Source: a virus (lineage: Duplodnaviria > Heunggongvirae > Uroviricota > Caudoviricetes). From it: 54,213 bases of DNA. The DNA lies in IMG/VR virus record IMGVR_UViG_2721755676_000004; one strand, given 5' to 3'. Positions within the stretch are counted from its first letter, which is position 1; each line of letters opens with the position of its first letter. This document shows, piece by piece, positions 1,239 through 52,682 of this stretch. Both the position numbers and the translations under genes were made by a program. The notes beneath the pieces are model-generated. The model was not told the DNA's origin, made no database searches, and saw only the letters and a list, made by a program, of their open reading frames with translations.

Positions 1239-1814
1239 CTACGGCAGTGCTGGCCATTCAATATCCTGTGAAGTTGACGTATCAACACGGTTCAGCAATA
1301 CCCGATACTTTTTCCATGCTTCCAGCAACGAGATTTCTTCCTCCGTTGCAATTTCCAGATCTGCAGCATCCTGAAGCGGCGCAATATGCTCACTGGCTAC
1401 CTGCATCAGGTTGTTTTTTGTTTCTTCCGCCTCCCGGATCCGGAACAGTTTTTCTGCTTCCGTATCCTTCACCCAGGCTGTGCCGTTCCACTTCTGAAAC
1501 TCCCCTTCCGGCGATAACCAGGTAACATTTTCCGGTAACGGACCGAGTTCAGAAATAAATAACGCGTCGCCGGAAGCCACGTCATAAACCGTTTTACCCC
1601 GATGATCTTCAACGAGATGCCACGATGCCTCATCACTGTTGAAAACAGCCACGAAGCCTGCCGGAATATCTGGCGGTGCAATATCGGTACTGTTTGCTGG
1701 CAGACCTGTATGAGGCGGAATATATGCATCACCTTCACCAATAAATTCATTAGTTCCGGCCAGCAGATTATAAATTGTTATGGTCCGTGGTTGTTCACTC
1801 ATTCTGAATACCAT
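1239..1814 (-). CDS. tfaR: Tail fibre assembly protein Tfa
   Basis: 191 aa; translation resembles lambdoid Tfa proteins; start overlaps stf stop (ATGA); immediately downstream of stf. Confidence 0.85.
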
Positions 1815-4800
1815 TATGCAAGCCTCACAATATAGTTAAATGCGATGTTTTTGACGGTGTTTTCCGCGTTACCAGCAGCGTTAACGGTGATGGTGTGTCC
1901 ATGTGAACCAATCGCAACGGAGTGCGTATGAGCACCAATACCGACAGTATGCGCGTGTGCACCTGCAGATGCTGCTGTGCCGGACAGTGAGTGGCTATGA
2001 TTACCATCTGTACTGGTATTAGCTAACCACCCCGTAGACATACCTACTGAGCCTTGTACACCCCAGGTATTTTGACCTGAGCTTGTATAACCATATTGAT
2101 AAGTATCTTTAAAAACACTGGGGTTAAATCGACGGCCATCTCTATGGCTGTGATTACCAGCTGCATTCGTGCTGCCACTTAAACTATGGGTATGCGCACC
2201 AGTGTTATTCGTGGATTTAGTGCCGTAATCAAACGACGATGTGGTTTTCGTCCCCAAATCCGTACTGGATGCGCTGGCGCTGTGGGTATGCGATTTAATG
2301 CCGTCCTGTTCCTGAGACAATACGGCCCGACCACTGGCAGGTTTGCCCTTAATCGTCCAGCCACGCATATCAGGGATCACGCCTGACGGATAAGCCGCTG
2401 CAAGTTTCGGGTATGCAGATTTGTCAAAAGTCTGCCCCTGCATCAGGGCATAGCCAGACGGAACGGTATCTGATGGCCACGGGATTGGTGCACCGACTGG
2501 ATAAAACTCTGCAGGAGGATGAGCCGAGGTGTAAAGCTGCGCCCACGGCGACCAGTTTGCGTCGGTCGTATCCCGTCGTGAACGAATAAATGCCGGAGCA
2601 TGAGCACCGCTTGTACCACTCCAGCCGATGAGTAACTCACCTTCGCCAACGGCTGTCATCCCTTTCAGGTGAATGATATTTCCATACGCTGTTGGATATC
2701 CGTTGTTATACACCTCGTATAACTCAAGACCTGTTGCCCCCTGCGTATTGTCTGTCAGCGCGGTTACCCGACCTTTTGAAGACAGATTAACTGATGATAC
2801 TGCTGTTCCACCTGACGGTAATGCCCCGATCTCTGATGCCGTTGGCTTATTTCTGGAGTTATAGTCCCTTCGCCAGCCAGGTGAATAATCTGTTCCGTGA
2901 TTAATATAGGTAAACTGGGCGTTAGTTGTTCCGCCACCAGTGGAGGTAGTCGGTGTGGTAATGCGGATCGTCATCGCTGACTTTATCCCCATTACTTCAA
3001 TGACAGCTCCTGCGAGATGAATATTACCGCAGCCAGTATCAGTAATGATTTTATTATTGCCATAAGACCAGGAACCCTTGCACATCCAGTATGGATGGTT
3101 AAATGCTCCCTGAGAATCCAGCCACTCGATAAACTGTGCAGTCGTCCAGTCTCCTGTTGTTGTGCTTACTGACCCACCGAAGGCACGGCTGGCACCAATA
3201 TTTTTCGTAAAGGTGTCTTTGCCAGGGATATCCGCACCGTTCTTATCTTTCTGCAGACGTTTCTCAGCATTGTCATTGGCTGCTTTTACTGCCTTTGGCG
3301 TTGCTGCCAGCGTTTCAGACGTGCTGTTGGTCGCGCTGCTTAGCTGGACTATCCCTTTCTGTGCTGTCGTTGCATCCTGTGCGGTGTATTTCCCGTCAGC
3401 CAGGTCATACGCGGCCTTAACTGCTTTTGGCGTTGCCGCCAGTGACTCGGAAGTGCTGTTGGTCGCACTGCTGAGCTGTACTATCCCCTTTTTCGTCGTG
3501 CTCGCATCCTCAAGCGCCACGGCGGATGCAATATCCTCTGCCCGTTTTGCCGCTGTCTCAGCGCGCGTTGCCGCGGATTCCGCCGTACTTTTGCTCTGTG
3601 CTGCCGCCGTCGCACTGCCAGCTGCCTCTGTCGCCTTCGTGGATGCTGTCGTGGCGCTGCCCTTCGCTGCTGACGCTTGTCTGGTCGCCTCATCTTTTGA
3701 AGCAGACGCAGATGATGCCGATGACGCCGCCGAACTGGCGGACGATGCGGCAGCCGTTTTTGAGGATTCTGCGCTGGTTTCCGACGCTTTCGCGTTCGTC
3801 TCGGATGTCTTCGCTGCGGAAGCAGACCTCGCTGCTGCGCTGGCCTGTTCAGTGGCTTCGCCAGCCTTCGTTGTGGCTGTTGAAGCAGACGATGCGGCAC
3901 TTTCTGCCGATTTTCCGGCGGCGGTGGCACTGGCTGAGGCCTGCCCGGCACTTGTTGACGCGGCACTGGCAGACGACGCAGCCGCTGTTTTTGAGCCTGC
4001 CGCAGCCGAGGCGCTCTGTCCCGCTGCCGTTTCAGAAGACCTGGCGTTTGTCTCAGACGTCTTTGCCGCCTTCGCGGAATTGCCTGCCGCCGTTGCCGAG
4101 GAAGCGGCACTACTGGCGCTTGATGATGCGTTCGTTTCTGATGATTTCGCTGCCTCTTTTGAGGCCGCCGCATCCCGGGCTGAGGTGGCTGCTTCTGACG
4201 CCTTCGTGGTCGCGGCGGATGCAGAAGTGGCTGCTGATTGTTGTGACGCTGCCGCATTCGTTTCTGACGTTTTCGCCGCAGCGGCACTGGTAGCTGCCGC
4301 GCTTTTTGAGGACTCTGCAGCAGCAGCACTTTTCGATGCTTCACTGGCCTTTGTTGATGCCGTTCCTGCGCTGGAAGATGCTGACTGAGCCGACGACGCG
4401 GCCTGTCCGGCTGACGTGCTGGCTGCGCGTGCTGAGCCTGCAGCATCAGTCGCATGGGTTGCCGCCTCACGTGCTGATGTGCCGGCATCGCTGGCTGACT
4501 TCTTCGCGGCTGCCGTGTTCTGTGCCACCGCGGACGCGTTACGCACCACCTCTTCCACCATCAGTTCAAAACGGCGCAGAGCCTCCGGACGGGCATCATC
4601 CTCCGTCATGGCACCGAGAAAATCATTCAGCGTACCGGGTTGAGAATCTTCATACACGGTGATGGTCCCGGCATGTGACGGCGGGAATCCTTCCACCAAC
4701 AGAATAACGCTGTACTGACCGTACTCAACGTCCATGCTGTAACGCCCGGCTTCATCCGGATTTTCTGAGGCCAGCGTGTTTACCACCACCGTGGTACTGT

Positions 4801-4885
4801 TACGTTTTGCTTTCAGCTGGATTGTGCAGTTCTGTACCGGTTTTCCTGTGCCGTCTTTCAGTACACCTGAAATCTTTACTGCCAT
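1814..4885 (-). CDS. stfR: Side tail fibre protein Stf with Ala/Ser-rich repeat region
   Basis: ORF track gives 1814..4891 from a GTG; ATG at 4885 gives N-terminus [12 protein letters not shown] typical of Stf; C-terminal His/Gly/Thr-rich fibre tip; internal tandem repeats. Confidence 0.85.
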
Positions 4886-4894
4886 ATTCACCCC

Positions 4895-4923
4895 ACAAAA
4901 AAGCCCGCCTGAACCGGCGGGCT
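4895..4923 (-). terminator. Rho-independent terminator candidate between lom and stf
   Basis: GC-rich inverted repeat AGCCCGCC...GGCGGGCT followed by a T-run on the minus strand. Confidence 0.5.
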
Positions 4924-4949
4924 GTCATAACACTGTGTTACCTGGCTAA

Positions 4950-5549
4950 TCAGAATTTATAACCAACACCCACGATGAACCCGTCAGTGCGCCAGTCACC
5001 ACTGCCGGAGCCTTCATAAGCGACATCAATGGCCACGGATTCGGTCGGGTTAAACTGCACGCCAGCCCCCCACACCAGAGACGTGTTGCTGTGGCGACCG
5101 TCATCACTTCCGGTCAGCACATCGTGCGTTTTCCCCTTATTGTCAGTTACGCGGATATAATCCCCGGAAAAAGTCGACACACGGCTGTAAGCCACACCCG
5201 CCATCGCATACGCGCTGAACCATTCATTCACGCGTACAGACGGCCCCGCCATCACGCTGAACCAGCGGTTACGCACGGAATCTTCATACCAGCGGGTATC
5301 GCTGTAACGGGTCAGCTGGCGATTCTTGTCTCCTGCATAGCTGAACGACGTCACCATCCCCAGTGTGTCCGTAAACTCATAACGGTATTTCACGTTAATC
5401 CCGTTCAGATCATCACTGCCGGGAACGTTCGTCCGGGCATGAAGATACCCCGCGCTCAGCGTGGACTGATGTTCAGATGCCCATGCAGGCGCACCGGATA
5501 CGGCCAGACAAATGGCTGCGGAAAAAATGGCGGCATAAAGTTTACGCAT
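4950..5549 (-). CDS. lom: Outer membrane beta-barrel protein Lom (Ail/Lom family)
   Basis: 199 aa; signal peptide; alternating amphipathic strands; C-terminal aromatic residue (GYKF); position between J and stf as in lambda. Confidence 0.85.
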   Translation of the reverse strand: MRKLYAAIFSAAICLAVSGAPAWASEHQSTLSAGYLHARTNVPGSDDLNGINVKYRYEFTDTLGMVTSFSYAGDKNRQLTRYSDTRWYEDSVRNRWFSVMAGPSVRVNEWFSAYAMAGVAYSRVSTFSGDYIRVTDNKGKTHDVLTGSDDGRHSNTSLVWGAGVQFNPTESVAIDVAYEGSGSGDWRTDGFIVGVGYKF

Positions 5550-29020: not shown

Positions 29021-29485
29021 TTACTTTAAACACTGCTCGGTTATGTATTGCTGAGCACCTTCAAGTTGGGCCTGCATCATTACCAGTCGTTCCCGGAGGG
29101 TGAAATAATCCCGTTCAGCGGTGTCTGCCAGTCGGGGGGAGGCTGCATTATCCACGCCGGAGGCGGTGGTGGCTTCACGCACTGACTGACAGACTGCTTT
29201 GATGTGCAACCGACGACGACCAGCGGCAACATCATCACGCAGAACATCATTTTCAGCTTTCGCATCAGCTAACTCCTTCGTGTATTTTGCATCGAGCGCA
29301 GCAACATCACGCTGACGCATCTGCATGTCAGTAATTGCCGCGTTCGCCAGCTTCAGTTCTCTGGCATTTTTGTCGCGCTGTTCTTTGTAGGCGATGGCGT
29401 TATCACGGTAATGATTAACACCCCATGACAGGCAGACGACGATGCAGATAACCAGAGCGGAGATAATCGCGGTTACTCTGTTCAT
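29021..29485 (-). CDS. Rz i-spanin
   Basis: N-terminal TM then coiled coil; start [12 protein letters not shown] at 29485 overlaps endolysin stop (ATGA); resembles lambda Rz. Confidence 0.8.
29080..29265 (-). CDS. Rz1 o-spanin lipoprotein embedded in Rz (+1 frame)
   Basis: 61 aa; lipobox LVVVGC; proline-rich (PPPPPAW); fully nested in Rz. Confidence 0.75.
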
Positions 29486-29711
29486 TGCTGACCCCACAAA
29501 CAGATTTCACGCTCAATCTCACGACGAGTCATGAGACCTTTCCATTGCTTACCGCCAGCATATGTCCAGCGACGTAGCTGATCACATGCGCCTTTGATAT
29601 CGCCCTGGTTTATTTTGCGAAGAAGCGTCGATGTTCTGAAATTGCCAGCACCCACGTTGTAAACGAATGAGTAAAGAGCGCCGCGCGTTGTTTCCGGTAT
29701 ATCGACTTTGA
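29482..29711 (-). pseudogene. SAR endolysin, C-terminal fragment (IS2-disrupted)
   Basis: Encodes ...[23 protein letters not shown]...CLWGQQ; reading frame runs into the IS2 left end. Confidence 0.85.
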
Positions 29712-29802
29712 TAGACTGGCCCCCTGAATCTCCAGACAACCAGTATCACTTATTTAAGTGATAGTCTTAATACTAGTTTTTAGACTAGTCATTGGAGAGC
29801 AG

Positions 29803-30168
29803 ATGATTGATGTCTTAGGACCGGAGAAACGCAGACGGCGTACCACACAGGAAAAGATCGCAATTGTTCAGCAGAGCTTTGAACCGGGGATGACGGTCTC
29901 CCTCGTTGCCCGGCAACATGGTGTAGCAGCCAGCCAGTTATTTCTCTGGCGTAAGCAATACCAGGAAGGAAGTCTTACTGCTGTCGCCGCCGGAGAACAG
30001 GTTGTTCCTGCCTCTGAACTTGCTGCCGCCATGAAGCAGATTAAAGAACTCCAGCGCCTGCTCGGCAAGAAAACGATGGAAAATGAACTCCTCAAAGAAG
30101 CCGTTGAATATGGACGGGCAAAAAAGTGGATAGCGCACGCGCCCTTATTGCCCGGGGATGGGGAGTAA
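29803..30168 (+). CDS. insC: IS2 transposase OrfA (InsC)
   Basis: 121 aa from [13 protein letters not shown]; HTH; A AAA AAG slippery site at 30120..30126 near its end. Confidence 0.85.
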
Positions 30169-31031
30169 GCTTAGTCAGCCGTTGTCTCCGGGTGTCGCGT
30201 GCGCAGTTGCACGTCATTCTCAGACGAACCGATGACTGGATGGATGGCCGCCGCAGTCGTCACACTGATGATACGGATGTGCTTCTCCGTATACACCATG
30301 TTATCGGAGAGCTGCCCACGTATGGTTATCGTCGGGTATGGGCGCTGCTTCGCAGACAGGCAGAACTTGATGGTATGCCTGCGATCAATGCCAAACGTGT
30401 TTACCGGATCATGCGCCAGAATGCGCTGTTGCTTGAGCGAAAACCTGCTGTACCGCCATCGAAACGGGCACATACAGGCAGAGTGGCTGTGAAAGAAAGT
30501 AATCAGCGATGGTGCTCTGACGGGTTCGAGTTCCGCTGTGATAACGGAGAAAAACTGCGAGTCACGTTCGCGCTGGACTGCTGTGACCGTGAGGCACTGC
30601 ACTGGGCGGTCACTACGGGCGGCTTCAACAGTGAAACAGTACAGGACGTCATGCTGGGAGCGGTGGAACGCCGCTTCGGCAACGAGCTTCCGGCGTCTCC
30701 AGTAGAGTGGCTGACGGATAATGGTTCATGCTACCGGGCTAATGAAACACGGCAGTTTGCCCGGATGTTGGGGCTTGAACCGAAGAGCACGGCGGTGCGG
30801 AGTCCGGAGAGTAACGGCATAGCAGAGAGCTTCGTGAAAACGATAAAGCGTGACTACATCAGTGTCATGCCCAAACCAGACGGGTTAACGGCAGCAAAGA
30901 ACCTTGCAGAGGCGTTCGAGCATTATAACGAATGGCATCCGCATAGTGCACTGGGTTATCGCTCGCCACGGGAATATCTACGGCAGCAAGCCAGTAATGG
31001 GTTAAGTGATAACAGGTGTCTGGAAATATAG
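30126..31031 (+). CDS. insD: IS2 transposase OrfB (InsD), DDE catalytic domain
   Basis: 301 aa in the -1 frame relative to insC; rve/DDE-type integrase core. Confidence 0.85.
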
Positions 31032-31042
31032 GGGCAAATCCA

Positions 31043-31315
31043 TTTGATGTACGGGTTAATTTGTCTGGCGACCGTGGCAAGGTCTTTATTCAAGAGTGTT
31101 TTGCATTCTGCTTTGGTATACGTTTTACCGAGCATGATGTCTTTTCCTGTATGCCCGTGACATACAGTCCATACACCAACAATATCTTTGTATGGTATGT
31201 AGCTGACACCTTCCAGACCATCGTTACCACTTGGGCCAGTGATTAACACTGATGCTATAGCAATTGCTCCGCCACCAATAGCAGCAGCAACGACTTTTCG
31301 TAATGATGGAGGCAT
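31043..31315 (-). pseudogene. SAR endolysin, N-terminal fragment (IS2-disrupted)
   Basis: [27 protein letters not shown]... signal-anchor-release domain as in phage 21 R; frame continues into IS2 right end after INPYIK. Confidence 0.85.
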
Positions 31316-31530
31316 TATTCACCTCTCGCAGCCTTGCGCTTATCTTCTTTAATCTTGAAATAAAGGTTTGTCAGGTACGTCAGCAGGCCAAATACCAGAC
31401 TACCCAGCACACCGATTGCAGCCCACTGTGACGGAGTTACTCTATCGAGCAACTGTAAAAACCAGTAGCCAGCACTGCCTGCGGAGGTGCCGTAGGCAAT
31501 GCCTGTTGAAATTTTGTCCATGGATTTCAT
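31315..31530 (-). CDS. Pinholin (phage 21 S-like), dual-start motif
   Basis: Starts [10 protein letters not shown] (two Met codons three codons apart); two TM helices; AGGTGAGG SD upstream; ATGA overlap with endolysin start. Confidence 0.8.
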
Positions 31531-31781
31531 AGCCTCACCTCCGCACGGAACGGATGGCATAGTTATTATGTGTAGGCTTTCAGACACATCAATCAGAGCC
31601 TTAATTGATATATATGCTGGAGACGATGCAATATAAAAAGCTCGCCGTAGCGAGCTAATAAAATGTATTTCTCTGATATTATGTTTATTTGTATTAGCTC
31701 AGACTTGACATCACAGGTTTCGTATATAGAACATCATCAAATCTGTCAGTTTGCTATGAATGAGATATAGTAATTGAAGAG

Positions 31782-32177
31782 CTAACCTCGCATGTCAAAG
31801 CCAGATTTCTGAAAATCTCTGTAGACTTCCGGATTGTTGAAGGCCGGAAATTTGGCTTTATGAGCTGCGGACTTTATCGCTTCGCAATAGGCTTTATCAC
31901 CGTTACTGGTAGATATTTTTAACGCCGTGCCATCCTGAGAGAATTCCATATGCAACCTGCATTTTTTCCCTTTCCAGTTATGCGGCTCATCAAGTTTGGC
32001 ATTAATTGCAGCTCTGATTCCCCGCGCTTGCGCCCCCCATTCATCCTGATCATCCCAGCGTCCTGAACTGCAACTACCTGTAGCAGTAGTTTTGTGGCAA
32101 TCTGAAGGGTGTAAAGGTGTGCATCCCGCAACAAAACCGACCCAAAAAGTCAACATAACGATTTTCTTTAATCCCAC
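31782..32177 (-). CDS. Lipoprotein with TolA domain III-like C-terminal domain (paralog 1)
   Basis: 131 aa; signal peptide with lipobox FVAGC; C-terminal KGKKCRLHMEF...CEAIKSAAHKAKFPAFNNPEVYRDF matches the TolA C-terminal pattern. Confidence 0.65.
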   Translation of the reverse strand: MGLKKIVMLTFWVGFVAGCTPLHPSDCHKTTATGSCSSGRWDDQDEWGAQARGIRAAINAKLDEPHNWKGKKCRLHMEFSQDGTALKISTSNGDKAYCEAIKSAAHKAKFPAFNNPEVYRDFQKSGFDMRG

Positions 32178-32327: not shown

Positions 32328-32756
32328 TCAGGGTTTAAAATCCAGCACCCCATTTTGAAATACTTTATATACTTCCGGCGAAGGGGGGGCAGGTATATCA
32401 GCATTCTTTATCGCATTCATCGCTTCACGACATAAATCGAGGTCTCCACTTTCTCTTTTAACCTCCAGTAGAAGGCCATTCGGGGCCATATGCATTCTCA
32501 GTGTACACTCTTTTCCTGAATACTTACTCGCATCCCCGAACTGTTTTTCGATGGCGCTCTTGATTTGATGGGCATACAGACGGATATCCTCACTAACATC
32601 AGAAGTACGTTCAGATGAACTCACATACTGTGTCTCTATTGCTTTATCGGAGTAATATGATGTACGGTCATGATAATTTGTCGATACAGCATCAGTGCAC
32701 CCGATAATAATCCCACTAATAATCAACGTAAGAATTGATGCGCTACGAAAACCCAT
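32328..32756 (-). CDS. Lipoprotein with TolA domain III-like C-terminal domain (paralog 2)
   Basis: 142 aa; lipobox IIIGC; C-terminal YAHQIKSAIEKQFGDASKYSGKECTLRMHMAPNGLLLEV...PPSPEVYKVFQNGVLDFKP closely resembles the E. coli TolA C-terminus as I remember it. Confidence 0.7.
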   Translation of the reverse strand: MGFRSASILTLIISGIIIGCTDAVSTNYHDRTSYYSDKAIETQYVSSSERTSDVSEDIRLYAHQIKSAIEKQFGDASKYSGKECTLRMHMAPNGLLLEVKRESGDLDLCREAMNAIKNADIPAPPSPEVYKVFQNGVLDFKP

Positions 32757-33344
32757 TTTTCCTCACATATGTCATATAGTAAAGGATTATATATACCGTT
32801 GTTTTGGACGCTCAAACAGCGAATCAGATCAAATAAAACGCACATTTGTTAACATTTACACAAAGTCTGCGTGGGATATTCTGAAAGAATATCCATAATG
32901 TGGATAGAATCTATTGAAGTGCATGGTGCCGGGTGCCTCCCGGTGAACAAAATGTTCGTGATACCTGTCGGCGACAGAAAAGGTTAATGGTATCACCCCA
33001 CCGCACAGGGGGATTCACCATGCAGGAGTTTTCTTAGCAAACTCACTGCGCGCCCGGCAACTCCCAACCACATAAAATGCGGAGTTTGTGGTATTTATGC
33101 ATATAACTCGCAGGAATTATCTTAAAAAACTGATGTCGATCCGGATTAAAAAGAAGCAGGTCATCATCAGATGACTGGAAAAAAGGAAAACAAAAAATAC
33201 TCATCATACAGTTTTGATTGCAGGGATGAGCCTGCTATGCACAATATGCAGAATATAAGCAAGATAAAAATATGCAGGCATATTATTTCGGATTTTGTTA
33301 TTAACACAACCTTTTTAATAATCATTTGGCATACAATAAACCAG

Positions 33345-33800: not shown

Positions 33801-34343
33801 TCAAGCCATTTTCTCAGCAAATGATTCACGCATGGGAATATATAGGGCATACTCAGCAACAGCTAACCAATTAGCAATCCGTTTTTCGCATGTGCTAAAA
33901 CACCACTCTGGGTGTGCATCATTTAGCAATTCAGCCATTTTGCGCTTAGTCATCCCCCGCCCTTCATAGCGTTGCCGGAGAATGCAAATCAATCCTGGAT
34001 GCTCTGCCAGCACCTCACTTATGACTCGATCAATACATAACGCCTCTGCATCAGTACAATGCGCCAGCCAGCTCTTTTGCTTGCCGTTGATCATCTCTCG
34101 CAAAAACGCTTCCAGCTCAGCTTTCTCTATTCCCGCTTTTTTCATTCTGCGCAGGGCTTCATTAATGGCTGTTTTCGTCAGTTTTTTGGATGCCAACAAC
34201 TGATTGAACATATTCCCTGACCTGCCACCGCCAATATACGACCAGCGCCCCCACATACGTAGTTTTCCCTGAATCCAGACACTTTCCAGCGTGGTGAGGC
34301 GAAGGTGTTCTCCGCTTTTTCCTGTATTCGTTGGGTAAATCAT
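33801..34343 (-). CDS. Putative late-gene antiterminator (Q-like by position)
   Basis: 180-aa basic protein immediately upstream of terminator/promoter-like spacer and lysis genes; family not confirmed; start may be internal. Confidence 0.4.
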   Translation of the reverse strand: MIYPTNTGKSGEHLRLTTLESVWIQGKLRMWGRWSYIGGGRSGNMFNQLLASKKLTKTAINEALRRMKKAGIEKAELEAFLREMINGKQKSWLAHCTDAEALCIDRVISEVLAEHPGLICILRQRYEGRGMTKRKMAELLNDAHPEWCFSTCEKRIANWLAVAEYALYIPMRESFAEKMA

Positions 34344-35596: not shown

Positions 35597-36042
35597 AGTA
35601 GCCACATGATAAGTTGCTGGAATCATATTTCCCACTCAAGTCATTAACATTTGATAAGATATATCTAAAAGGACGCCTTTACATTATTTATGTGTATATA
35701 ATTTATTTATATACACAGTAAAGGTATCCTGGGAAAATACTTATCGTTAAAAAATACATCATAAATAATCAAGCTGAAATTTCAGAACACAACTAATACA
35801 CACAATAAGGTTCAGTAACAATAATCTATGTGGACTACATCGAGATTTTTTGATTAAACTTTAATAACTTATTCCTAACACACAGAATGCATAAACTAAA
35901 AGTAAAACAAATAGTTATACGAAAAACAACCATATTTATTATATCTTCTCCTCTAATCAACATATCAATTATGTGTTTCATAACAGCTTGACATAACCCT
36001 CAAAAACACGCATTTATAATGCATGTTTTTGAGGAGGTGGTT

Positions 36043-36381
36043 ATGACACACAAGAGAATTCCTAAAGATTGGGTAATCAAACGCTCAACTCCGTTCTTCA
36101 CAAAAGAGAACGTACCTTCAGCGTTATTAACACATCATAATACAGCAGCAGGTGTTTTTGGGCAGTTGTGCGTAATGGAAGGCACTGTAACATATTATGG
36201 TTTTACTGATGAGAATGCTACTGAACCGGAGATAAAAGTAGTCATTAATGCTGGCGCTTTTGCAACAAGCCCACCACAATACTGGCACCGTGTTGAACTA
36301 AGCGATGATGCTCAGTTTAATATTAACTTTTGGGTCGCTCCAGACTTCTCGGGCGAAAAAGTCTATAGCACCAAAAAATAG
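36043..36381 (+). CDS. YeaR-like DUF1971 protein
   Basis: GAGGAGG SD before ATG at 36043; RSTPFF...VMEGTVTYYGFTDE...AGAFATSPPQYWH...FNINFWVAP resembles E. coli YeaR. Confidence 0.7.
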   Translation: MTHKRIPKDWVIKRSTPFFTKENVPSALLTHHNTAAGVFGQLCVMEGTVTYYGFTDENATEPEIKVVINAGAFATSPPQYWHRVELSDDAQFNINFWVAPDFSGEKVYSTKK

Positions 36382-37104
36382 ATGATCATATTAAAAATGC
36401 TTTAACAGTCAGACCCGGCAGGGCTATCCCCGACGGGTCTCATTTTTGTAAATATATTGGTTCTACATTGACAGGAGACTTCAACCATAAGAAGTAATCT
36501 GAATACTTGAGCAATAAATTTACTTAAGATTAATGAGCGCACCTTGCCGGACAAAGATAAACCAAGGTAACACCTTTTTTCTAGCCAGTATGTAATCAAT
36601 CAGAAAGCCGCTCCATAAGAACAACAGCAAGACAATAAATTGCCATTACAGCCGCAATAGCTAGCGCACATTTGAGAACCAGCACGACAACCTCCTGTAT
36701 TGGACGTACACCAGTTCTGATAAATATGAGGCTGTCTCATCATTGATTCAATATAACTATTGGGTATAGTTTCTGTGATTTTGTTCTGTAGAAATGGAAC
36801 ACAACAACCAGTCACCACCAGCACTTCTTTAAATACGCCAAGTCCGACGCAAGCTAACCTTCTAGTCCGCTTTGAGCGAGGAGCGGACCAAACCCGGCCA
36901 ACTGACTCTTAAAGGGGCCGCAGGAATTTTTCGTCTGAACTTTCGAAGCTCCTCTCCCTGAAGACAGAAAACTTCTGTGTGCTGTGGGAATATTGAATCT
37001 TTGCCTTAGATATAAATAATTTTATCCCGCCTGAAGTTTACATTATTTTATTTATCTGTTTTTCTAAATCAGACTGCACTCCTTACTTAAATCAGGAGCC
37101 AGTC

Positions 37105-38304
37105 ATGCCATTTGTTATTTATGTGTTTACTATCAGTGCCTTTGCGCTCGGACTCGCGGAATTTGTCCCCATTGGGCTGACAGACGTTATGGCTCAGGGG
37201 TTGTGTGTGGGTGTGGAGCAGACCGGGGCAGCGGTTACAACCTATGCACTGGGGGCAACGTTCGCGGCACCCGTACTGTCTGCGCTGACAGCAAGCTGGA
37301 GCCGGAAAAATGTAATGCTTACAACTGCCGTTGTGTTTACTGCCGGTAGTCTGGCGGCCGCGTTTGCAGCCACATTACCTCAGCTCCTGTTAGCGCGGTT
37401 CATTGCTGGTCTGGGACACGGCCTGTTTCTGGCTGCGGCATCCAGTACCGCAGCTCGTCTTGCTGGACCGGGTAAAGCAGGCAGAGCGGTGGCTGTGGTA
37501 TTTGGTGGCTTTACTCTGGCGATGGCAATCGGCGTACCGCTGAGTACATGGTTGGGGGGGGTGGTCTCATGGCGTCCAGTTCTCGGCGCTATTGCCGCTT
37601 TTGGCGCGTTCGGATTCCTTGGACTGTTGTTCGGTATGAAAGATCCCGTACGCAGCGTGCCCGGTGAACATAGTGACTCAGCAATGCAGAATATCGGCAT
37701 GCTGTTTAACCGTAAGTTGCTGGCCGGCGCGCTGGTTACGGTGCTGGCGTATGCAGGCTCGTTTACGGCTTACACCTTTATCGCACCTATTCTGACGCAG
37801 GTGACAGGGGTTACCGGAGCAACGGTGAGTCTGTTTATGCTGGTTTACGGTATTACAGCTGCGGTAGGTAATATTCTTGGTGGGAAACTTACCGACAGCA
37901 TGGGGGTTAATCGTGCCAATATACTCATCATTAGCGGCATTGTTGTTGTCGTGCTTGGTATGTGGCTGCTGTCATCCTCACCGGTGAGCATGGGCATTCT
38001 GGTTGCGCTGCTGGGTATGGTGACATTTGCCGCAGTGCCGGCACTGCAGGCCCGTCTGATTGGTGTCGCTGAGCAACATGCTCCTCATGCGCATGGTGTT
38101 GCTGCCGGCCTGAATATTGCGGGCTTCAACTCAGGTATAGCGCTGGGATCAGTACTGGGCAGCATTACTATAAGCCACGCCGGTATCGTGTATACCGGTA
38201 TCAGCGGTGCGATTGTTTCTCTGCTCGGCCTGCTGTTGCTGCTTGCACAAATCCGTCGCAGCCACAGTCGTAAATTTCAACAGGTTAAAATCGTAGGCCA
38301 GTAA
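37105..38304 (+). CDS. MFS transporter (12 TM)
   Basis: 399-aa polytopic hydrophobic protein with MFS-like loop motifs. Confidence 0.85.
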   Translation: MPFVIYVFTISAFALGLAEFVPIGLTDVMAQGLCVGVEQTGAAVTTYALGATFAAPVLSALTASWSRKNVMLTTAVVFTAGSLAAAFAATLPQLLLARFIAGLGHGLFLAAASSTAARLAGPGKAGRAVAVVFGGFTLAMAIGVPLSTWLGGVVSWRPVLGAIAAFGAFGFLGLLFGMKDPVRSVPGEHSDSAMQNIGMLFNRKLLAGALVTVLAYAGSFTAYTFIAPILTQVTGVTGATVSLFMLVYGITAAVGNILGGKLTDSMGVNRANILIISGIVVVVLGMWLLSSSPVSMGILVALLGMVTFAAVPALQARLIGVAEQHAPHAHGVAAGLNIAGFNSGIALGSVLGSITISHAGIVYTGISGAIVSLLGLLLLLAQIRRSHSRKFQQVKIVGQ

Positions 38305-38315
38305 AGGGAGGTTAT

Positions 38316-39008
38316 ATGCTTACCCGTGAAAATATGCTTAATGGCACATTTGTCAGGGTGCATGAAGCGCTGCTCCCGGCGAATATGCTCTGGGACGCTG
38401 AAAAAATACGCGCATCAATGAACTCTACTCTGGAGGAGCGCCCGACGGGTGCTCCTGTCTGGATATTTGCCTACGGGTCATTGATGTGGAATCCCGTGCT
38501 GGCGATTGAAGAAATGCAACGGGCCCGTCTGAAAGGATGGCAGCGCAGTTTCTGCATTCGTTTGATATCCGGACGAGCGACTCCTGATGTCCCCGGCAGG
38601 ATGTTATCGCTCGACGAAGGTGGAATTACCGAAGGTATTGCGTTCAGACTGCCGGAATCGACTCTTATTAATGAGCTGGAAATTGTCTGGACGCGCGAGA
38701 TGATAACCGGTCTTTACCGTCCGGTCTGGGCAGACGTTTCGCTAGGAAACGGTGAGGAAATTCAGGCGCTGGCTTTCGTATCAGACAGACTGCATCCGCA
38801 TTATGAACAGGACAATCTTACAGCGACCGTAGCGTTGAGCATCGCATCTGCCCGTGGAGACATTGGCACGAATGCAGATTATGTATGGAAACTGCAGGCC
38901 ACTCTGGGTGCGTTGGGAATACGGAATGATTACGTGAGTGAACTGGCCCTTGCTCTGCATGAGGCTCCCTGTAACGATAAACTTCATCAGCGAGGCGCTT
39001 CACTATGA
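38316..39008 (+). CDS. ChaC-family gamma-glutamylcyclotransferase-like protein
   Basis: 230 aa; VWIFAYGSLMWNP motif and overall similarity to E. coli ChaC. Confidence 0.75.
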   Translation: MLTRENMLNGTFVRVHEALLPANMLWDAEKIRASMNSTLEERPTGAPVWIFAYGSLMWNPVLAIEEMQRARLKGWQRSFCIRLISGRATPDVPGRMLSLDEGGITEGIAFRLPESTLINELEIVWTREMITGLYRPVWADVSLGNGEEIQALAFVSDRLHPHYEQDNLTATVALSIASARGDIGTNADYVWKLQATLGALGIRNDYVSELALALHEAPCNDKLHQRGASL

Positions 39009-39886
39009 GCCATCTGAGCCATCTGCGAACGTTTCTTGAGGCCTATCGCTCTGGCTCCTTTTCAAAGGCGGCAGAACTACTGGGCATCACTCAGCCCGCG
39101 GCGTCACAGCATATCCAGTCTCTTGAGACTCTGGTTGGTAAGCGTCTGTTTATCAGGCAGGCCAGAGGCGTGACGGCAACCGAAGCTGCGGATGAGCTTG
39201 CCCGCTCAGTTTCACCCTTCATTGATGGTCTGGAAGAAAAGCTGTCCTCTTTCCGGTCAGGCTCTGTACGCGGGGGAACAATTAATCTGGCAGGACCGCC
39301 AGATTTTATTCATTCCCGGCTTGGGACAGTAATGGCTCCACTAATGAAGGAGGGGTATCGCCTACGCTTTCATACCGGCAATAAGCAACGTATTTATTCC
39401 CTTTTGCATGACGGGAGCGCCGATCTCGCTGTTACCGCATCTATGCCTGATGACCGTCTGTACGGCTATGCACATCTACTGACTGAACGCATGCTCCTTG
39501 TTCATGCTCCCGCCATGTCAGAGATCATCGGATCAGAACCTGGTGCTGAAACGCTTGCCTCATTACCGCTGATTGCTTATGACGAAGAGTTGCCACTGAT
39601 TAGAGCGCTCTGGGCCTCCATGTTTCAGAGAGCCCCTGAGATGCAGGCTACATTCACCATTCCGGATTTACGTATTATCCGCGACTTGGTCTGTGACGGC
39701 CACGGGTGGACAGTGCTGCCGGATTATCACTGTGACAATGACCTGAAAAGTGGTCGCCTGATTTCAGTGACACCTGCAGACCTCGCTCCGACTAATCATC
39801 TTTATCTGGTCTGGAACAAAAGGACGGCTAATAACAGCCGAACCGCCTATGTTCGGGATTACATTCTTAAAACGTTTCCGCGTTGA
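39005..39886 (+). CDS. LysR-family transcriptional regulator
   Basis: 293 aa; N-terminal HTH (FSKAAELLGITQPAASQHIQSLE) plus LysR substrate-binding domain; overlaps ChaC-like stop. Confidence 0.85.
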   Translation: MSHLSHLRTFLEAYRSGSFSKAAELLGITQPAASQHIQSLETLVGKRLFIRQARGVTATEAADELARSVSPFIDGLEEKLSSFRSGSVRGGTINLAGPPDFIHSRLGTVMAPLMKEGYRLRFHTGNKQRIYSLLHDGSADLAVTASMPDDRLYGYAHLLTERMLLVHAPAMSEIIGSEPGAETLASLPLIAYDEELPLIRALWASMFQRAPEMQATFTIPDLRIIRDLVCDGHGWTVLPDYHCDNDLKSGRLISVTPADLAPTNHLYLVWNKRTANNSRTAYVRDYILKTFPR

Positions 39887-39932
39887 TGTTTGAAACGGAT
39901 GATTGGCGATGCGTATCATAAGTTACGTATGT

Positions 39933-39960
39933 CCGCTTCTGGCACAAAGCAGACGCCCAC
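39933..39960. repeat. 28-bp repeat copy A (TTGGCACAAAGCNGAC..CCAC core)
   Basis: Near-identical to 43606..43633, direct orientation. Confidence 0.5.
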
Positions 39961-40016
39961 TCTCACGCGAATGCTTTGCCCTTGACTTGCCAACAACCGT
40001 ATCGCTTGCTCCGCAA

Positions 40017-41309
40017 CTATGGTTTTTTATTAGAATCTTCGCCACTAAATAAATTATAATAAATTGATTTTATTAGATATCTATCAGAATCTATATGGTC
40101 AGCACGAGTAGCATGCTCTAATGTTTCAAATGCTAGGGTTTGTGCGGCTTCAGCAAAAATTCCAGGCCAACCCTTACTCAGCATCGACAGTCCTTTAAGT
40201 ACCCTTATCTGAATTTCCCTCATACTGGCACCATCGCGCGCAACAGGTGAGAAAAAGTCTTCAAGTAGATCGTTATTCTGAAGTGGTGCAACATGTACAG
40301 AAGGATATTTCACTTCTATTTCATCAGATTTATTCTGCGCGTAAGCGGAAAGTATACGTACACCTCTGCCAATGACATCAATGGCGGTTCCAGGATCGTT
40401 CACTGCGGGGGAAAGGGCTCGGCAGGCTATTTCGGCCATGACGCTAAGACAAAATCGGGGGTCCTGAGCAAATGAACGTACATCCGAGACAATAATCGTC
40501 TCAAGTAAATCGGTGCTGATTGATGACTCCTGGCCCTGACTCAGGTACAAAACTGGCGTGGACGGATGTATGAAACTGCCCGGCTGCGCCACGAGGTATA
40601 CATGACGGGGATCATTGGTCAGCAGCTTGCTGAGTTTCACCATATCAACATATTCAACATAGCCAATCTTTTTCGGATAAACTGCAACCGTTCCTTTCGG
40701 CTGTTCATTGTTCTCAAGCCATGGATATCCGCCGAGACAGGGATTTCTTGCTCTCGCAATAAATGTTTCGATGGCCGCCTGTTCTACTTTTGCCGTTGTC
40801 TCACCAACCCTCCCCAGAGAGGTCAAATGCTGTATCCAGCGAAGCAATGTGATGAGGATTAAGGCAATGACAACCAGTGTTACAATGAATAAAATGACTC
40901 TCCCCCTTTCTCCATAAGCTCCCATATTGAGGGCAATAATCCCTACCAGACTGAAGAGAAAAGAACCGATGAAGGTGGCCAGTACATTTTGTGTGGTGAC
41001 GTCTTCAACAACTAAACGAGTAGCTCTGGGAGTCACATTAGTAGTGGCTGAACCGTAGGCTGTGACCATGATGCTCAGCGAAAATGTGGTCACGGCCAGC
41101 ATACTCGATGCCAGTATGTTCAGAATGTTATCGACTGCTTCCGCACCAACCTTCACGGAAACCGACTCAGGTATCATTGATTTAAAAAGAATTGATAAAA
41201 GGGCCGTTATTATTGCGACAATTGCGAATAACGTTGCCCTGAACCATAGTTTTTTAAATGTCTGCTTCAGCATCCATTTCCAGCGTGAAATCATTCTGCA
41301 TTCTCTCAT
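40017..41309 (-). CDS. Integral membrane protein with C-terminal soluble domain
   Basis: 430 aa; several N-terminal TM helices; start may be internal. Confidence 0.6.
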   Translation of the reverse strand: MRECRMISRWKWMLKQTFKKLWFRATLFAIVAIITALLSILFKSMIPESVSVKVGAEAVDNILNILASSMLAVTTFSLSIMVTAYGSATTNVTPRATRLVVEDVTTQNVLATFIGSFLFSLVGIIALNMGAYGERGRVILFIVTLVVIALILITLLRWIQHLTSLGRVGETTAKVEQAAIETFIARARNPCLGGYPWLENNEQPKGTVAVYPKKIGYVEYVDMVKLSKLLTNDPRHVYLVAQPGSFIHPSTPVLYLSQGQESSISTDLLETIIVSDVRSFAQDPRFCLSVMAEIACRALSPAVNDPGTAIDVIGRGVRILSAYAQNKSDEIEVKYPSVHVAPLQNNDLLEDFFSPVARDGASMREIQIRVLKGLSMLSKGWPGIFAEAAQTLAFETLEHATRADHIDSDRYLIKSIYYNLFSGEDSNKKP

Positions 41310-41357
41310 ATTGCAGCCGGGATAAATAAATGCCGCCTCTGTGGCGGCATGTTGCTG

Positions 41358-43361
41358 TTAACGAACCAGATGCAGGAAGTGCAGGTGTTTTTCGTACTGG
41401 TCCAGTATGTCATTAATCAGCTGTTCCTGATTCCAGCCCATTACATCATAATTTTGGCCGCCCTCTTTGAGATAGACTTCAGCGCGATAATATCGATGTT
41501 GTTCACTCTGCTGCTCATCATTATCCAGCGCAGCGAGCGCGAAGGTCGGTGAGTTATACCCGCGAAGCCTCACTTCATATATATAATTCAGCTCGTTGCC
41601 CAAATCGACTTCAAGGCGAATACGATCCTCGGCGGCGTCACTGATGTGGCTTATCGTTCCCTGCTTGTTAAGTTCCTCCTGAACCAGCGTCATGGCGGGT
41701 TGGATAATGTCGTCCATAAAACGTTTCACAAGAGAGCGCTTCGGCAAATACGCGATATTGCGTAACCTTCTCTGCCAGGGAATTGGGTTACGTGCAGCCG
41801 TAGGAGCAATAGTCGCCATGCTAAGGCTTTCACGCTTGGTCAAATCCCGACGCAGGGCTTTTAACAGTCCGTATATGGATATTAATAAGATAACTGAGAA
41901 GGGCAATGCACTCGCTATCGTTACGGTTTGCAACGCACTCAGCCCCCCTGCGATCAGCAGGGCAATAGCAACAACGCCCATGAGCGATGCCCAGAAAATT
42001 CGCTGCCAGACGGGCGTGTTTGCCACCCCACCTGATGCCAGAGTATCCACAACCATTGCCCCCGAATCAGCAGACGTTACAAAGAAGACGATGACCATCG
42101 CCATTGCAATGAATGACAGCACGGAAGAGAACGGGAAATGCTCCAGGAAATTAAACAGGGCAAGCGCAACATCCTGCTGAACGGTATTGGCGAGGTCAGT
42201 GGCGCCCTGGTTCATGATGAGATAGATGGCGCTGTTTCCAAACACCGTCATCCACATGAGCGTAAAGCCGGCGGGAACAAACAACACGCCAGTCACGAAC
42301 TCACGAATTGTCCTGCCGCGGGAAACGCGTGCAATGAACATACCTACAAACGGCGACCATGAAAGCCACCATCCCCAGTATAATAATGTCCAGCCCCCCA
42401 GCCAGTTGCTCGACTTGGGTTCATACGCGTAAAGGTTGAACGTTTTACTCACCAGTTCCGACAGATAACCACCCGTATTTTCCACAAATGACTTCAGCAG
42501 AAGCACAGTGGGACCCAGGCACAAGACCAGCGCCAGGAGCAACACTGCCAGGCCCAGATTAAGCTCAGACAGGATGCGTATTCCCTTGTCCAGGCCGGAC
42601 ACCACCGAAATCGTCGCTAACCCCGTGATGACCACGATCAAAATGACCTGTACCGTTTCATTGATGGGCACGCCGAAAAGATGGTTCAAACCGGCATTCA
42701 CCTGCAATACACCGTAACCCAGCGATGTTGCAACGCCAAAGACAGTGCCTATCACGGCGAAGATATCAACCGCGTGGCCTATAGGCCCGTAAATGCGATC
42801 GCCGATAATGGGATAGAGCGCAGAACGCAGCGTTAAAGGCAGACCGTGACGGTAACTGAAAAAGGCCAGAATCAGCGCCACGATGGCATAAATTGCCCAT
42901 GCGTGCAGACCCCAGTGGAAGAACGTCAGGCGCATGGCTTCCTTCGCTGCCGCAACGGTCTCTGGAGTGCCGACAGGTGGCGAAAGATAATGCATCACAG
43001 GTTCGGCAACGCCAAAGAACATCAGGCCGATCCCCATCCCTGCCGAAAAAAGCATCGCGAACCAGGAGTGGTAGCTGAAATCAGGCTGCGCATGGTCTGG
43101 GCCCAGCTTTATATCACCGTAACGTGAGAGTCCAAGGAACGTGACGCTCAGTAAAATCAGGGCCACAGCAAGTATGTAGAACCAGCTGGCATTCGTGAAG
43201 ATTTGTTGCTGAAGTAGTTTAAAATTTTTGTCGGCGACATCCGGGAATACGGCGGCAAAGGCGACAAGAAGGAAAATTAGCAAAGCAGATGTAAAGAATA
43301 CCGCTTTGTTAATCTGGCTTGTAGACTTCTTTGGGGTTGTATCATTTTCACTCATAATCAT
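41358..43361 (-). CDS. BCCT-family transporter (BetT/CaiT-like)
   Basis: 667 aa; strong resemblance to E. coli BetT including WTLFYW/WWxAWSPFVG-type motifs and long cytoplasmic C-tail. Confidence 0.85.
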   Translation of the reverse strand: MIMSENDTTPKKSTSQINKAVFFTSALLIFLLVAFAAVFPDVADKNFKLLQQQIFTNASWFYILAVALILLSVTFLGLSRYGDIKLGPDHAQPDFSYHSWFAMLFSAGMGIGLMFFGVAEPVMHYLSPPVGTPETVAAAKEAMRLTFFHWGLHAWAIYAIVALILAFFSYRHGLPLTLRSALYPIIGDRIYGPIGHAVDIFAVIGTVFGVATSLGYGVLQVNAGLNHLFGVPINETVQVILIVVITGLATISVVSGLDKGIRILSELNLGLAVLLLALVLCLGPTVLLLKSFVENTGGYLSELVSKTFNLYAYEPKSSNWLGGWTLLYWGWWLSWSPFVGMFIARVSRGRTIREFVTGVLFVPAGFTLMWMTVFGNSAIYLIMNQGATDLANTVQQDVALALFNFLEHFPFSSVLSFIAMAMVIVFFVTSADSGAMVVDTLASGGVANTPVWQRIFWASLMGVVAIALLIAGGLSALQTVTIASALPFSVILLISIYGLLKALRRDLTKRESLSMATIAPTAARNPIPWQRRLRNIAYLPKRSLVKRFMDDIIQPAMTLVQEELNKQGTISHISDAAEDRIRLEVDLGNELNYIYEVRLRGYNSPTFALAALDNDEQQSEQHRYYRAEVYLKEGGQNYDVMGWNQEQLINDILDQYEKHLHFLHLVR

Positions 43362-52285: not shown

Positions 52286-52480
52286 ATGAGATATGACAAT
52301 GTTAAACCATGTCCATTTTGTGGTTGTCCATCAGTAACGGTGAAAGCCATTTCAGGATATTACCGAGCGAAGTGTAACGGATGCGAATCCCGAACCGGTT
52401 ATGGTGGAAGTGAAAAAGAAGCACTCGAAAGATGGAATAAACGAACCACTGGAAATAATAATGGAGGTGTTCATGTATAA
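52286..52480 (+). CDS. ralR: RalR (Lar) restriction-alleviation / DNase toxin protein
   Basis: 64 aa from MRYDNVKPCPFCGCPSVTV; Cys4 motif. Confidence 0.7.
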   Translation: MRYDNVKPCPFCGCPSVTVKAISGYYRAKCNGCESRTGYGGSEKEALERWNKRTTGNNNGGVHV

Positions 52481-52682
52481 AATTACCGCCACTATTGAAA
52501 AGGAAGGTGGCACTCCTACTAACTGGACAAGATATTCAAAATCTAAACTAACGAAATCAGAATGCGAAAAAATGCTCTCAGGTAAAAAAGAAGCAGGCGT
52601 TTCCAGAGAGCAGAAAGTAAAACTGATAAATTTTAATTGCGAGAAACTTCAGTCCTCGAGAATTGCATTGTATTCAAATTAA
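52473..52682 (+). CDS. Small protein (69 aa), YdaC-like
   Basis: GGAGGTG SD before ATG at 52473; overlaps ralR end. Confidence 0.5.
   Translation: MYKITATIEKEGGTPTNWTRYSKSKLTKSECEKMLSGKKEAGVSREQKVKLINFNCEKLQSSRIALYSN

Follow-up and report, generated by a model that had tools for sequence, protein, structure and literature searches.

IS2 interrupts the SAR endolysin gene of a full-length Rac-family prophage within a recurrently hit lysis cassette

The Rac prophage of Escherichia coli K-12 is about 23 kb long and its lysis cassette is reduced to rzpR/rzoR remnants. The literature refers to it as incomplete, and insertion of an IS element is a recognised route to the grounding of prophages (PMC6379469). 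Complete lysis cassettes of the type considered here are known from phage 21 (S21-R21-Rz-Rz1; 3HDE/3HDF) and from DLP12 (essD-rrrD-rzpD; 4ZPU). The behaviour of signal-arrest-release (SAR) endolysins and of pinholins, and the lethality of holins, have been described (PMC9239132). For IS2, target selection is non-random (PMC3299598). RefSeq genomes also include annotated rrrD pseudogenes that are interrupted by IS2 (for example in NZ_CP059929.1, NZ_CM129042.1, NZ_CP042588.1 and NZ_CP020509.1). They resemble the locus studied here in the IS, in the gene and in having 5-bp duplications, and most of them lie in the same prophage family; the insertion positions, however, are other ones, and none is at the TTTGA described below.

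The window, by which we mean the whole stretch of 54,213 nucleotides analysed, carries a full-length Rac-family element of about 54 kb that extends from pinR to intR. A comparison of its lysis cassette with those of phage 21 and DLP12 shows the same gene order and the same overlaps, except that the endolysin gene R is split at codons 90-91 and that the cassette, with trkG as its neighbour, belongs to a Rac-family prophage. We regard it as very likely that IS2 entered R of this prophage, that the endolysin was lost while pinholin, Rz and Rz1 were kept, and that this represents ordinary decay in a stretch preferred by IS2. The mechanism and the outcome of such an R::IS2 allele are already known, and the case is most simply seen as ordinary prophage decay, not as biology of a new kind. 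The element and its surroundings consist of the following features.

29707..29711: 5-bp target-site duplication TTTGA, left copy
29712..31042, plus strand: 1331-bp complete IS2 (IS3 family), an isoform that shares 97.7% identity with K-12 IS2A
29712..29753, plus strand: IS2 left inverted repeat IRL, 42 bp, outer end TA
29803..30168, plus strand: insC (orfA), 121 aa, HTH_Tnp_1 (Pfam PF01527 at 1.8e-19)
30120..30126, plus strand: A6G window A_AAA_AAG for programmed -1 frameshifting, read in the zero frame of insC
30126..31031, plus strand: insD (orfB), 301 aa, DDE integrase core (Pfam rve 4.8e-19, rve_3 9.1e-18, HTH_21 3.7e-11)
31002..31042, plus strand: IS2 right inverted repeat IRR, 41 bp, CA-3' end
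31043..31047: 5-bp target-site duplication TTTGA, right copy

In ISfinder practice, copies with at least 95% nucleotide identity are treated as the same IS. The copy in the window lies above this value with respect to the reference IS2, as its alignment to K-12 IS2A (insC1/insD1) is free of gaps over 1331 bp and contains 30 nucleotide differences. Both elements have the same length, the same IRL/IRR architecture, the A6G window and a 5-bp duplication; InsC is identical to K-12 InsC1, whereas InsD differs from InsD1 by eight amino acid substitutions, none of them a stop codon. The element starts with TAGACTGGCCCCC and finishes with GGGGCAAATCCA. Gapped alignment of its ends (TAGACTGG... against ...CAAATCCA) reveals imperfect inverted repeats with about 41 bp aligned and a 1-bp indel. 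A sequence-only reading of this DNA had proposed a complete 1331-bp IS2 with imperfect inverted repeats at this position, which we reproduced to the base. The IRL equals the one printed in PMC3219604 except at IS position 32, where the base is a variant, and at the inner edge, where positions 42-43 have diverged from K-12 IS2A. In RefSeq, this isoform is often labelled just 'IS3 family transposase'.

An A6G motif is described for IS2 (PMC3219604), and the linking of InsC and InsD through it, proposed earlier for this copy, was borne out by simulation: a -1 slip at A_AAA_AAG produces a 409-aa OrfAB that is open throughout. Exact (100%) copies of the element are found at differing loci in at least seven other E. 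coli genomes. Such identical copies at several unrelated chromosomal loci of other strains suggest, indirectly, that the isoform is mobile and able to transpose.

The TTTGA direct repeat was confirmed on both sides of the element. A natural empty site is available in the annotated prophage of NZ_CP148578.1 (strain Z1322HEC0005), where TTTGA is present as a single copy and the surrounding lysis cassette is otherwise 100% identical to that of the window. The pattern is therefore not due to chance. Deletion of 29712..31047, which removes IS2 together with one TTTGA copy, yields a single minus-strand ORF of 498 nt encoding 165 aa, with the 13-residue junction that had been expected; when IS2 is removed and both TTTGA copies are kept, a frameshift remains. 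That an IS2 copy was misplaced here through repeat mis-assembly has a very small probability in our view. Most E. coli do carry several IS2 copies (the median is three places per genome), and the junction has no second witness in the databases searched, but both junctions are clean, the perfect TTTGA duplication is what a real IS2 insertion and not a mis-join would leave, and at least 15 comparable real insertions with 5-bp duplications are present in complete genomes.

The two parts of R and the frame that now begins at its start codon are as follows.

31043..31315, minus strand: R 5' fragment, codons 1-91, including the SAR segment and the triad E35/D44/T50
30956..31315, minus strand: truncated frame R', 119 aa, endolysin residues 1-91 plus 28 residues from the IS2 right end
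29482..29711, minus strand: R 3' fragment, C-terminal 74 residues plus stop, own start or promoter absent

The identity of the restored 165-aa protein as a phage 21-type SAR endolysin (GH24, T4-lysozyme-like), put forward earlier, is well supported. It matches Pfam Phage_lysozyme (PF00959) at 1.8e-45 and is identical at 162 of 165 positions both to R of phage 21 (3HDE) and to RrrD of DLP12 (4ZPU). The catalytic triad E35/D44/T50 is present in the E-X8-D-X5-T pattern that is characteristic of SAR endolysins (PMC9239132). Residues 1-30 are those of the experimentally characterised R21 (3HDE) apart from A8V, and by this likeness the SAR segment, weakly hydrophobic and rich in Gly/Ala, is predicted at about residues 7-27. 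IS2 is inserted at nucleotides 269-273 of R, so that R is not encoded as one uninterrupted gene and counts, in its present state, as a pseudogene within the family of phage 21-type SAR endolysins. What the R' stub lacks is the last 74 residues, the C-terminal part of the lysozyme fold.

The remaining lysis genes and the candidate late regulator were located on the same strand as R.

31315..31530, minus strand: intact phage 21-type pinholin S of the P21 holin family, 71 aa, with an MKSM dual start (Pfam PF04971 at 2.1e-35)
29021..29485, minus strand: Rz i-spanin, 154 aa, intact (Pfam PF03245 at 3.7e-53)
29080..29265, minus strand: Rz1 o-spanin lipoprotein, 61 aa, intact, inside Rz in another frame (Pfam PF06085 at 2e-19)
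33801..34343, minus strand: Q-like late antiterminator (DUF1133), with an identical gene annotated in the empty-site relative

These Pfam matches, and the identity of S and Rz to the genes of the empty-site relative, agree with the earlier statement that holin and Rz/Rz1 are intact. The S DNA is 100% identical to essD (WP_000839565.1) and Rz is identical to WP_001082755.1 of that relative, while the coordinates of Rz1 match rzoD (WP_001228688.1) as annotated in relatives. The stop codon of S and the start codon of R overlap by one base, and the ATG of Rz overlaps the stop codon of R (ATGA). The gene identical to the Q-like gene is called 'antitermination protein Q' in the ON4705xx records. Promoter-like and terminator-like sites were found by consensus scan downstream of the Q-like gene at 33430-33342. 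Reading the genes as one operon, the late transcript likely starts near 33430-33342 and runs through S, R::IS2 and Rz and then through the terminase, head and tail genes. Rz/Rz1 and all head and tail genes, being downstream of IS2 in what is probably a single late transcript, could be exposed to polarity. As no intrinsic terminators were predicted inside IS2 on the late-transcript strand, any such polarity would need Rho.

The following course of events can be suggested from these features. The IS2 isoform would have entered at TTTGA via the normal copy-out/paste-in route of the IS3 family, and R is now in two parts, the 119-aa N-terminal stub and the startless C-terminal piece. Functional endolysin would most likely not be produced from either. 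Upon induction, depolarisation and death of the cell would still be expected from the intact pinholin. With the murein left uncut, neither lysis nor release of virions by the enzyme of the prophage itself would follow.

The rest of the prophage was compared with its empty-site relative. Without IS2, window positions 6087-54213 align at 99.2-99.9% identity to the annotated prophage of NZ_CP148578.1, which abuts ttcA and carries intR/xisR, ralR/RalA, recET, racC, kilR, sieB, ydaS/T and trkG. RalA was detected by Rfam in the window as well. The integration adjacent to ttcA and the early genes among these, with trkG beside the lysis genes, are likewise shared with K-12 Rac; unlike K-12 Rac, the prophage of the window is complete in its terminase, head and tail modules and, but for R, in its lysis cassette. 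Positions 31043-54213 differ from the relative by 11 substitutions and one intergenic indel only, and 180 substitutions, mostly in J and the tape-measure genes, are found on the other side of IS2. The ORF lengths throughout the window agree with the annotated genes of NZ_CP148578.1. The view of the sequence-only reading that the prophage is specifically lysis-defective thus stands in comparative terms: in about 48 kb compared with the empty-site relative, IS2 was the one difference found that disrupts a gene. The prophage family, which shares pseudogenes (ynaK and a fragment of tolA) and bears some cargo genes (about 8 kb), may not be inducible, and this counts against the predicted induction phenotype. 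Matches to the ON4705xx vB_EcoS 'phage' records were considered as a sign of virion production and were rejected, since the records are in-silico prophages in clinical-isolate genomes and not isolated virions.

The loss of R may also be hidden by other genes of the host. An endolysin with 98% identity could be provided in trans by other prophages beyond the window, or R could be mended by recombination with them. Such a masked defect, through a near-identical endolysin from another lambdoid prophage (DLP12-, Qin- or iss-type) or through recombinational repair of R while late genes are still expressed, is unlikely in our estimate. The possible sources are abundant: 3,841 genomes contain a 152-bp segment of R, at 5,798 places in total and at as many as six in one genome, and the DNA identity between R alleles of different prophage backbones is 94-100%. 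In lambdoid prophages that are not induced, however, the endolysin genes lie behind Q-dependent late promoters and are normally unexpressed, a matter of general lambdoid biology that speaks against supply in trans. As for repair, recombination of temperate phages with defective prophages is documented (PMC3945230).

A search for the same insertion elsewhere gave no second example. Across 5,426 complete E. coli genomes, probes for either orientation did not detect the exact IS2/R junction at TTTGA. Neither the GTDB species representatives nor the JGI metagenomes contain the junction 42-mer, and by exact look-up no gene with the exact 119-aa truncated product is on record elsewhere. Literature searches on IS2 in prophage endolysins and on Rac, trkG and endolysin gave no report of the allele of the window or of recurrent IS2 hits in this cassette. 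The perfect duplication, the flanks 100% identical to the empty-site relative, the identical IS2 copies elsewhere and the unmatched junction together suggest that the insertion at TTTGA is recent, and it looks lineage-specific.

Other IS2 insertions in the same cassette are frequent. Among the 5,426 complete genomes, IS2 was found in or just upstream of the S-R cassette in the same orientation in at least 17 genomes and in the opposite orientation in at least 29. An orientation bias, which had seemed possible when the first probe saw one orientation only, was discarded after the reverse probe gave 29 versus 17 genomes. Mapping of 18 loci revealed 12 distinct IS2 sites in addition to the TTTGA of the window. 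Five of the 12 are used in both orientations and in unrelated prophage backbones, four of these with the same target-site duplication in both orientations; the fifth is CCAAC, where no duplication could be scored for the copy in minus orientation (relative L018), since an IS3 abuts it. No target consensus was seen by eye around the 13 mapped sites. With the same probe design, R was hit in 35 genomes, compared with no matches in a capsid control window (756 places) and none in a terminase control window, where the counts are per genome, uncorrected for shared ancestry, and refer to these two control windows only. On this basis we tentatively raise the possibility, to which we give somewhat less than even weight, that the 21-type S-R cassette of E. 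coli lambdoid prophages is a genuine hot region for IS2, in which the hot spots are specific to the nucleotide.

The same counts could be read in terms of selection, the insertion being favoured because loss of the endolysin benefits the host. It might, for instance, remove holin-independent lysis by leaky SAR endolysin, since spontaneous release of SAR endolysins can lyse cells without holin (PMC9239132). That IS2 is enriched, in per-genome counts, in the S-R cassette relative to the two control windows (capsid and terminase) from this prophage family is in line with such selected domestication, as is the presence of two or three IS elements inside the cassette of the relatives L010 and L018. 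We nevertheless consider it quite improbable. The reuse of five sites in both orientations and in unrelated backbones is the signature of target preference and not of selection on a gene product, and the many hits in the cassette speak for a preference of IS2 at least as much as for selection. The holin is intact and lethal once triggered, so the induced cell still dies and the host gains little by losing the endolysin. Moreover, the allele of the window has been seen once only, with no sign of a sweep in the genomes, the GTDB representatives or the JGI metagenomes. Of the recent domestication event proposed earlier, the recent date is supported by the perfect duplication, the identical flanks and the unmatched junction; domestication would imply selection, and target preference alone could explain such an insertion. 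IS-mediated prophage decay at a place where IS2 prefers to land would be the simplest view, rather than selected domestication.

With IS-mediated decay as the preferred reading, the Rac-type prophage of this strain is predicted to probably still kill its host on induction, without releasing virions by its own enzyme. This would be of use for induction experiments, for work on phage-mediated gene transfer and for annotation, in which the two R fragments should be treated as one pseudogene. The locus provides a clean, dated-looking case of IS-mediated prophage decay with an empty-site reference at hand. If the S-R cassette is indeed a hot region, the insertion in the window would be one more event in it, at a previously unseen site, and a single resident IS would repeatedly, and in a semi-targeted way, disarm the lysis of prophages throughout the species. 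If the recurrence survives phylogeny-aware analysis, it would bear on whether transposon target bias or host selection drives the grounding of prophages.

A complete IS2 interrupts R, the phage 21-type SAR endolysin gene (rrrD in DLP12), of this prophage. The sequence-only reading had described a 1331-bp element with IS2-type ends, InsC and InsD, an A_AAA_AAG motif and a TTTGA repeat, and all of these are reproduced from the sequence. The features of the insertion are the following.

29707-29711 and 31043-31047: TTTGA target duplication, five bases on each side of IS2
29712 (TAGACTGGCCCCCTGAATCTCC...) to 31042 (...GGGGCAAATCCA): IS2, 1331 bp, read directly from the sequence
29803..30168: InsC, identical to the K-12 protein, with HTH_Tnp_1 (Pfam)
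30120-30126: A_AAA_AAG window, in the InsC frame
30126..31031: InsD, 8/301 residues different from K-12, no stop codon, with rve, rve_3 and HTH_21 (Pfam)

When aligned with one gap, the ends form imperfect 42/41-bp inverted repeats, typical of IS2. The left end is the IRL printed in PMC3219604, except for a variant base at IS position 32 and diverged bases at the inner edge. The element is an isoform of K-12 IS2A, equal in length and 97.7% identical to it (30 substitutions). A simulated -1 slip at A_AAA_AAG yields an open OrfAB of 409 aa. Copies 100% identical to this isoform are found in other strains at unrelated loci (a fimbrial usher gene, a GH15 gene and ehaB among others), and the isoform is thus probably mobile in nature. 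A copy with 99.8% identity lies in the records of Escherichia phage PhiR11_1 (PV340547.1 and PV340548.1), so the isoform is carried in phage records as well. The insertion is of the standard IS2 type, with a duplication of 5 bp.

In-silico removal of the IS and one TTTGA copy (29712..31047) restores, as had been anticipated, a single minus-strand ORF of 498 nt encoding 165 aa; a frameshift remains if the IS alone is deleted. The restored protein matches Phage_lysozyme (Pfam, 1.8e-45) and is identical at 162/165 residues to the solved phage 21 endolysin (3HDE/3HDF) and to DLP12 RrrD (4ZPU). It carries the triad E35-X8-D44-X5-T50, and its N-terminus is the Gly/Ala-rich segment of R21 with one change, A8V; the catalytic motif and the SAR criteria for such endolysins are described in PMC9239132. 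IS2 truncates this endolysin. The present product of the locus is a 119-aa stub composed of residues 1-91 and 28 residues from the IS2 right end, and the C-terminal 74 residues of R are left without a start codon of their own. The holin and the Rz/Rz1 spanins had been called intact, and their ORFs and Pfam matches agree.

Upstream of R: S, an S21-family pinholin (essD), 71 aa, MKSM dual start, PF04971 (2.1e-35)
Downstream of R: Rz, PF03245
Embedded within Rz: Rz1, PF06085

A 25-kb query finds the locus in many complete E. coli genomes, with about 95% coverage where the IS is lacking. Among them, NZ_CP148578.1 (strain Z1322HEC0005) carries a full-length Rac-family prophage adjoining ttcA, and the host element of the window is likewise of this kind. 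The early region of this relative contains intR, xisR, rcbA, ralR, recT, recE, racC, ydaE, kilR, sieB, ydaS/ydaT-type regulators and replication genes. It is followed by an 8-kb cargo (BCCT transporter, DUF2254, LysR, gamma-glutamylcyclotransferase, MFS, DUF1971), by DUF1367, DUF1364, a DUF1133 Q-like gene, two TolA-C-terminal-like ORFs, essD-rrrD-Rz, trkG and ynaK, and finally by a full terminase, portal, head and tail set. The window aligns to it in two blocks, whose boundary is the one TTTGA copy of the empty site. The block at 31043-54213 differs by 11 substitutions and one intergenic 1-bp indel, the other by 180 substitutions, mostly in the J and tape-measure genes; the lysis cassettes are 100% identical. 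Since the two prophages are nearly identical and the window ORFs have the lengths of the annotated genes of the relative, IS2 is the only gene-disrupting difference found against an intact-cassette relative.

This intergenic indel, the sole one between the two prophages besides IS2, is a single-base deletion relative to NZ_CP148578.1 at window 33694, in 1.2 kb of unannotated sequence that separates the TolA-like ORFs from the Q-like gene. In the window, the 8-kb non-phage cargo (DUF1971, MFS transporter, gamma-glutamylcyclotransferase, LysR regulator, DUF2254 and BetT-like BCCT transporter) occupies 36019-43361, with the replication genes on one side and the nin/Q region on the other; a further moron, trkG, separates Rz from the terminase genes. 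Rfam matches are RalA, the antitoxin sRNA of the RalR toxin (52479-52657, minus strand, 225 bits), and 'IS009' within the tail-fibre-assembly gene region (1273-1471, minus strand, 221 bits). The window ends on the last base of the intR ORF (54213) and starts just before a 196-aa ORF (551-1141), taken as a pin-type invertase gene from its position and length only. It looks like an excerpt cut to the size of a prophage, not like a random slice, with the att sites themselves outside. Four in-silico prophage records of the same family (ON470585.1, ON470602.1, ON470581.1 and ON470587.1) all end at the equivalent of window 29500, 18 bp inside the R 3' end and just past the R/Rz overlap. A repeat, e.g. 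an IS in R, may have broken the contigs of those draft genomes at this point.

The late region contains the following further features.

33801-34343: Q-like gene, same strand as S, R, Rz, trkG and the morphogenetic genes
33430-33342: promoter-like and terminator-like sites, same strand as the Q-like and late genes
31782-32177, 32328-32756 and 32865-33053, all minus strand: two ORFs similar to the C-terminal domain of TolA and an Rfam STnc100 sRNA match (85.6 bits), all lying within the presumed late transcript, after the Q-like gene and before the holin
31656-31639: terminator-like hairpin just upstream of the holin

Because the Q-like gene, the promoter- and terminator-like sites, S, R, Rz, trkG and the morphogenetic genes form one same-strand series, IS2 probably sits inside a single late transcript. 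No intrinsic terminator is predicted within IS2 on the late-transcript strand. IS2 is classically linked to Rho-dependent polarity, which a Q-modified polymerase is expected to resist. Translational coupling of Rz to R would be lost because the Rz ATG overlaps the R stop (ATGA). From phage 21 pinholin and SAR endolysin biology (PMC9239132 and the Young-laboratory papers cited there), pinholin would still accumulate upon induction and its triggering would be lethal. Without a muralytic enzyme the cell wall would stay undegraded, the spanins would have nothing to complete, and virions would remain inside the cell. The proposed lysis defect is supported by the comparison with the empty-site relative, IS2 being the only disrupting difference found, with the qualification that killing by the holin likely remains.

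The insertion had also been called recent, and this holds. Junction probes detect the window's IS2 junction in none of 5,426 complete genomes in either orientation, the 119-aa product is absent among called genes on record, and a junction-spanning 42-mer is found neither in GTDB species representatives nor in JGI metagenome contigs. The junction is unique in the searched sets, the duplication is perfect, the transposase frames are intact and the flanks are identical, all of which fits an event that is recent and specific to this lineage.

The 21-type S-R cassette of E. coli prophages has received IS2 many times, in independent insertions. Junction probes place IS2 at most about 650 bp away from the probe flank in at least 17 genomes in the same orientation and at least 29 in the opposite one, that is, in or near the cassette in at least 46 of 5,426 genomes. 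Eighteen of these loci, homologous to window 29482-31800, were fetched and mapped. All carry a 1331-bp IS2, with clean 5-bp duplications in 16/18, and they define 12 distinct sites besides that of the window, nine inside R and three upstream of S. At five of the sites (AATTG, TCTGG, CCAAC, GTTAC and TTAAC) IS2 occurs in both orientations, with identical duplications in the two at four of them. At these four the two orientations occur in different backbones, Rac-like by trkG versus iss- or KilA-N-bearing lambdoids. At CCAAC both occur in Rac-like prophages, with an extra copy in a different lambdoid; its minus-orientation copy, in L018 (NZ_CM129884.1), is abutted by IS3 and has no scorable duplication. 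No sequence consensus was seen around the mapped sites, and the TTTGA of the window is not among the recurrent ones.

Several loci are more complex. L018 carries IS2 and IS3 back to back within R (2423-5434), and L010 (NZ_OY754409.1, 700-5434) has IS3 in Rz, IS2 in R and a second IS3 at the holin position. In L009 (NZ_CM148383.1, ~2718-4056), the right junction of the IS2 in R contains 8 additional bases (CAAATCCA) that repeat the right tip of IS2, and a simple 5-bp duplication was not found by script; the insertion may have been aberrant, or its junction may have been rearranged.

A probe design that combines a 300-bp flank with both ends of IS2 finds the element at R in 35 genomes; this count, like those above, is per genome and not per independent event, and the R flank is present at 5,798 places. 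With this one design, the two control windows in the same prophage give IS2 at 0/756 places for the capsid gene and no match for the terminase gene. IS2 is thus enriched in the cassette. Insertion of this element is known not to be random: phage P1 has a hot target region, the pattern in hemB is non-random, and there is a correlation with DNA curvature (PMC3299598). The target preference of a transposon produces just such reuse of the same nucleotides in both orientations. Selection may contribute to the enrichment but is not needed to explain it. Domestication, as the sequence-only reading had interpreted the event, is thus not demonstrated, and the identical sites reused in both orientations fit IS2 target preference. 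We only tentatively suggest that the 21-type lysis cassette is a species-wide IS2 hot region.

Apart from domestication, and with holin-mediated killing likely kept, the earlier observation and its interpretation stand. The finding is correct but ordinary: the element, the gene, the host element and the type of event are known, the insertion position alone is new, and dozens of RefSeq genomes already contain annotated rrrD pseudogenes split by IS2. The event in the window belongs to a recognised process, the 'grounding' of prophages by IS elements (PMC6379469).
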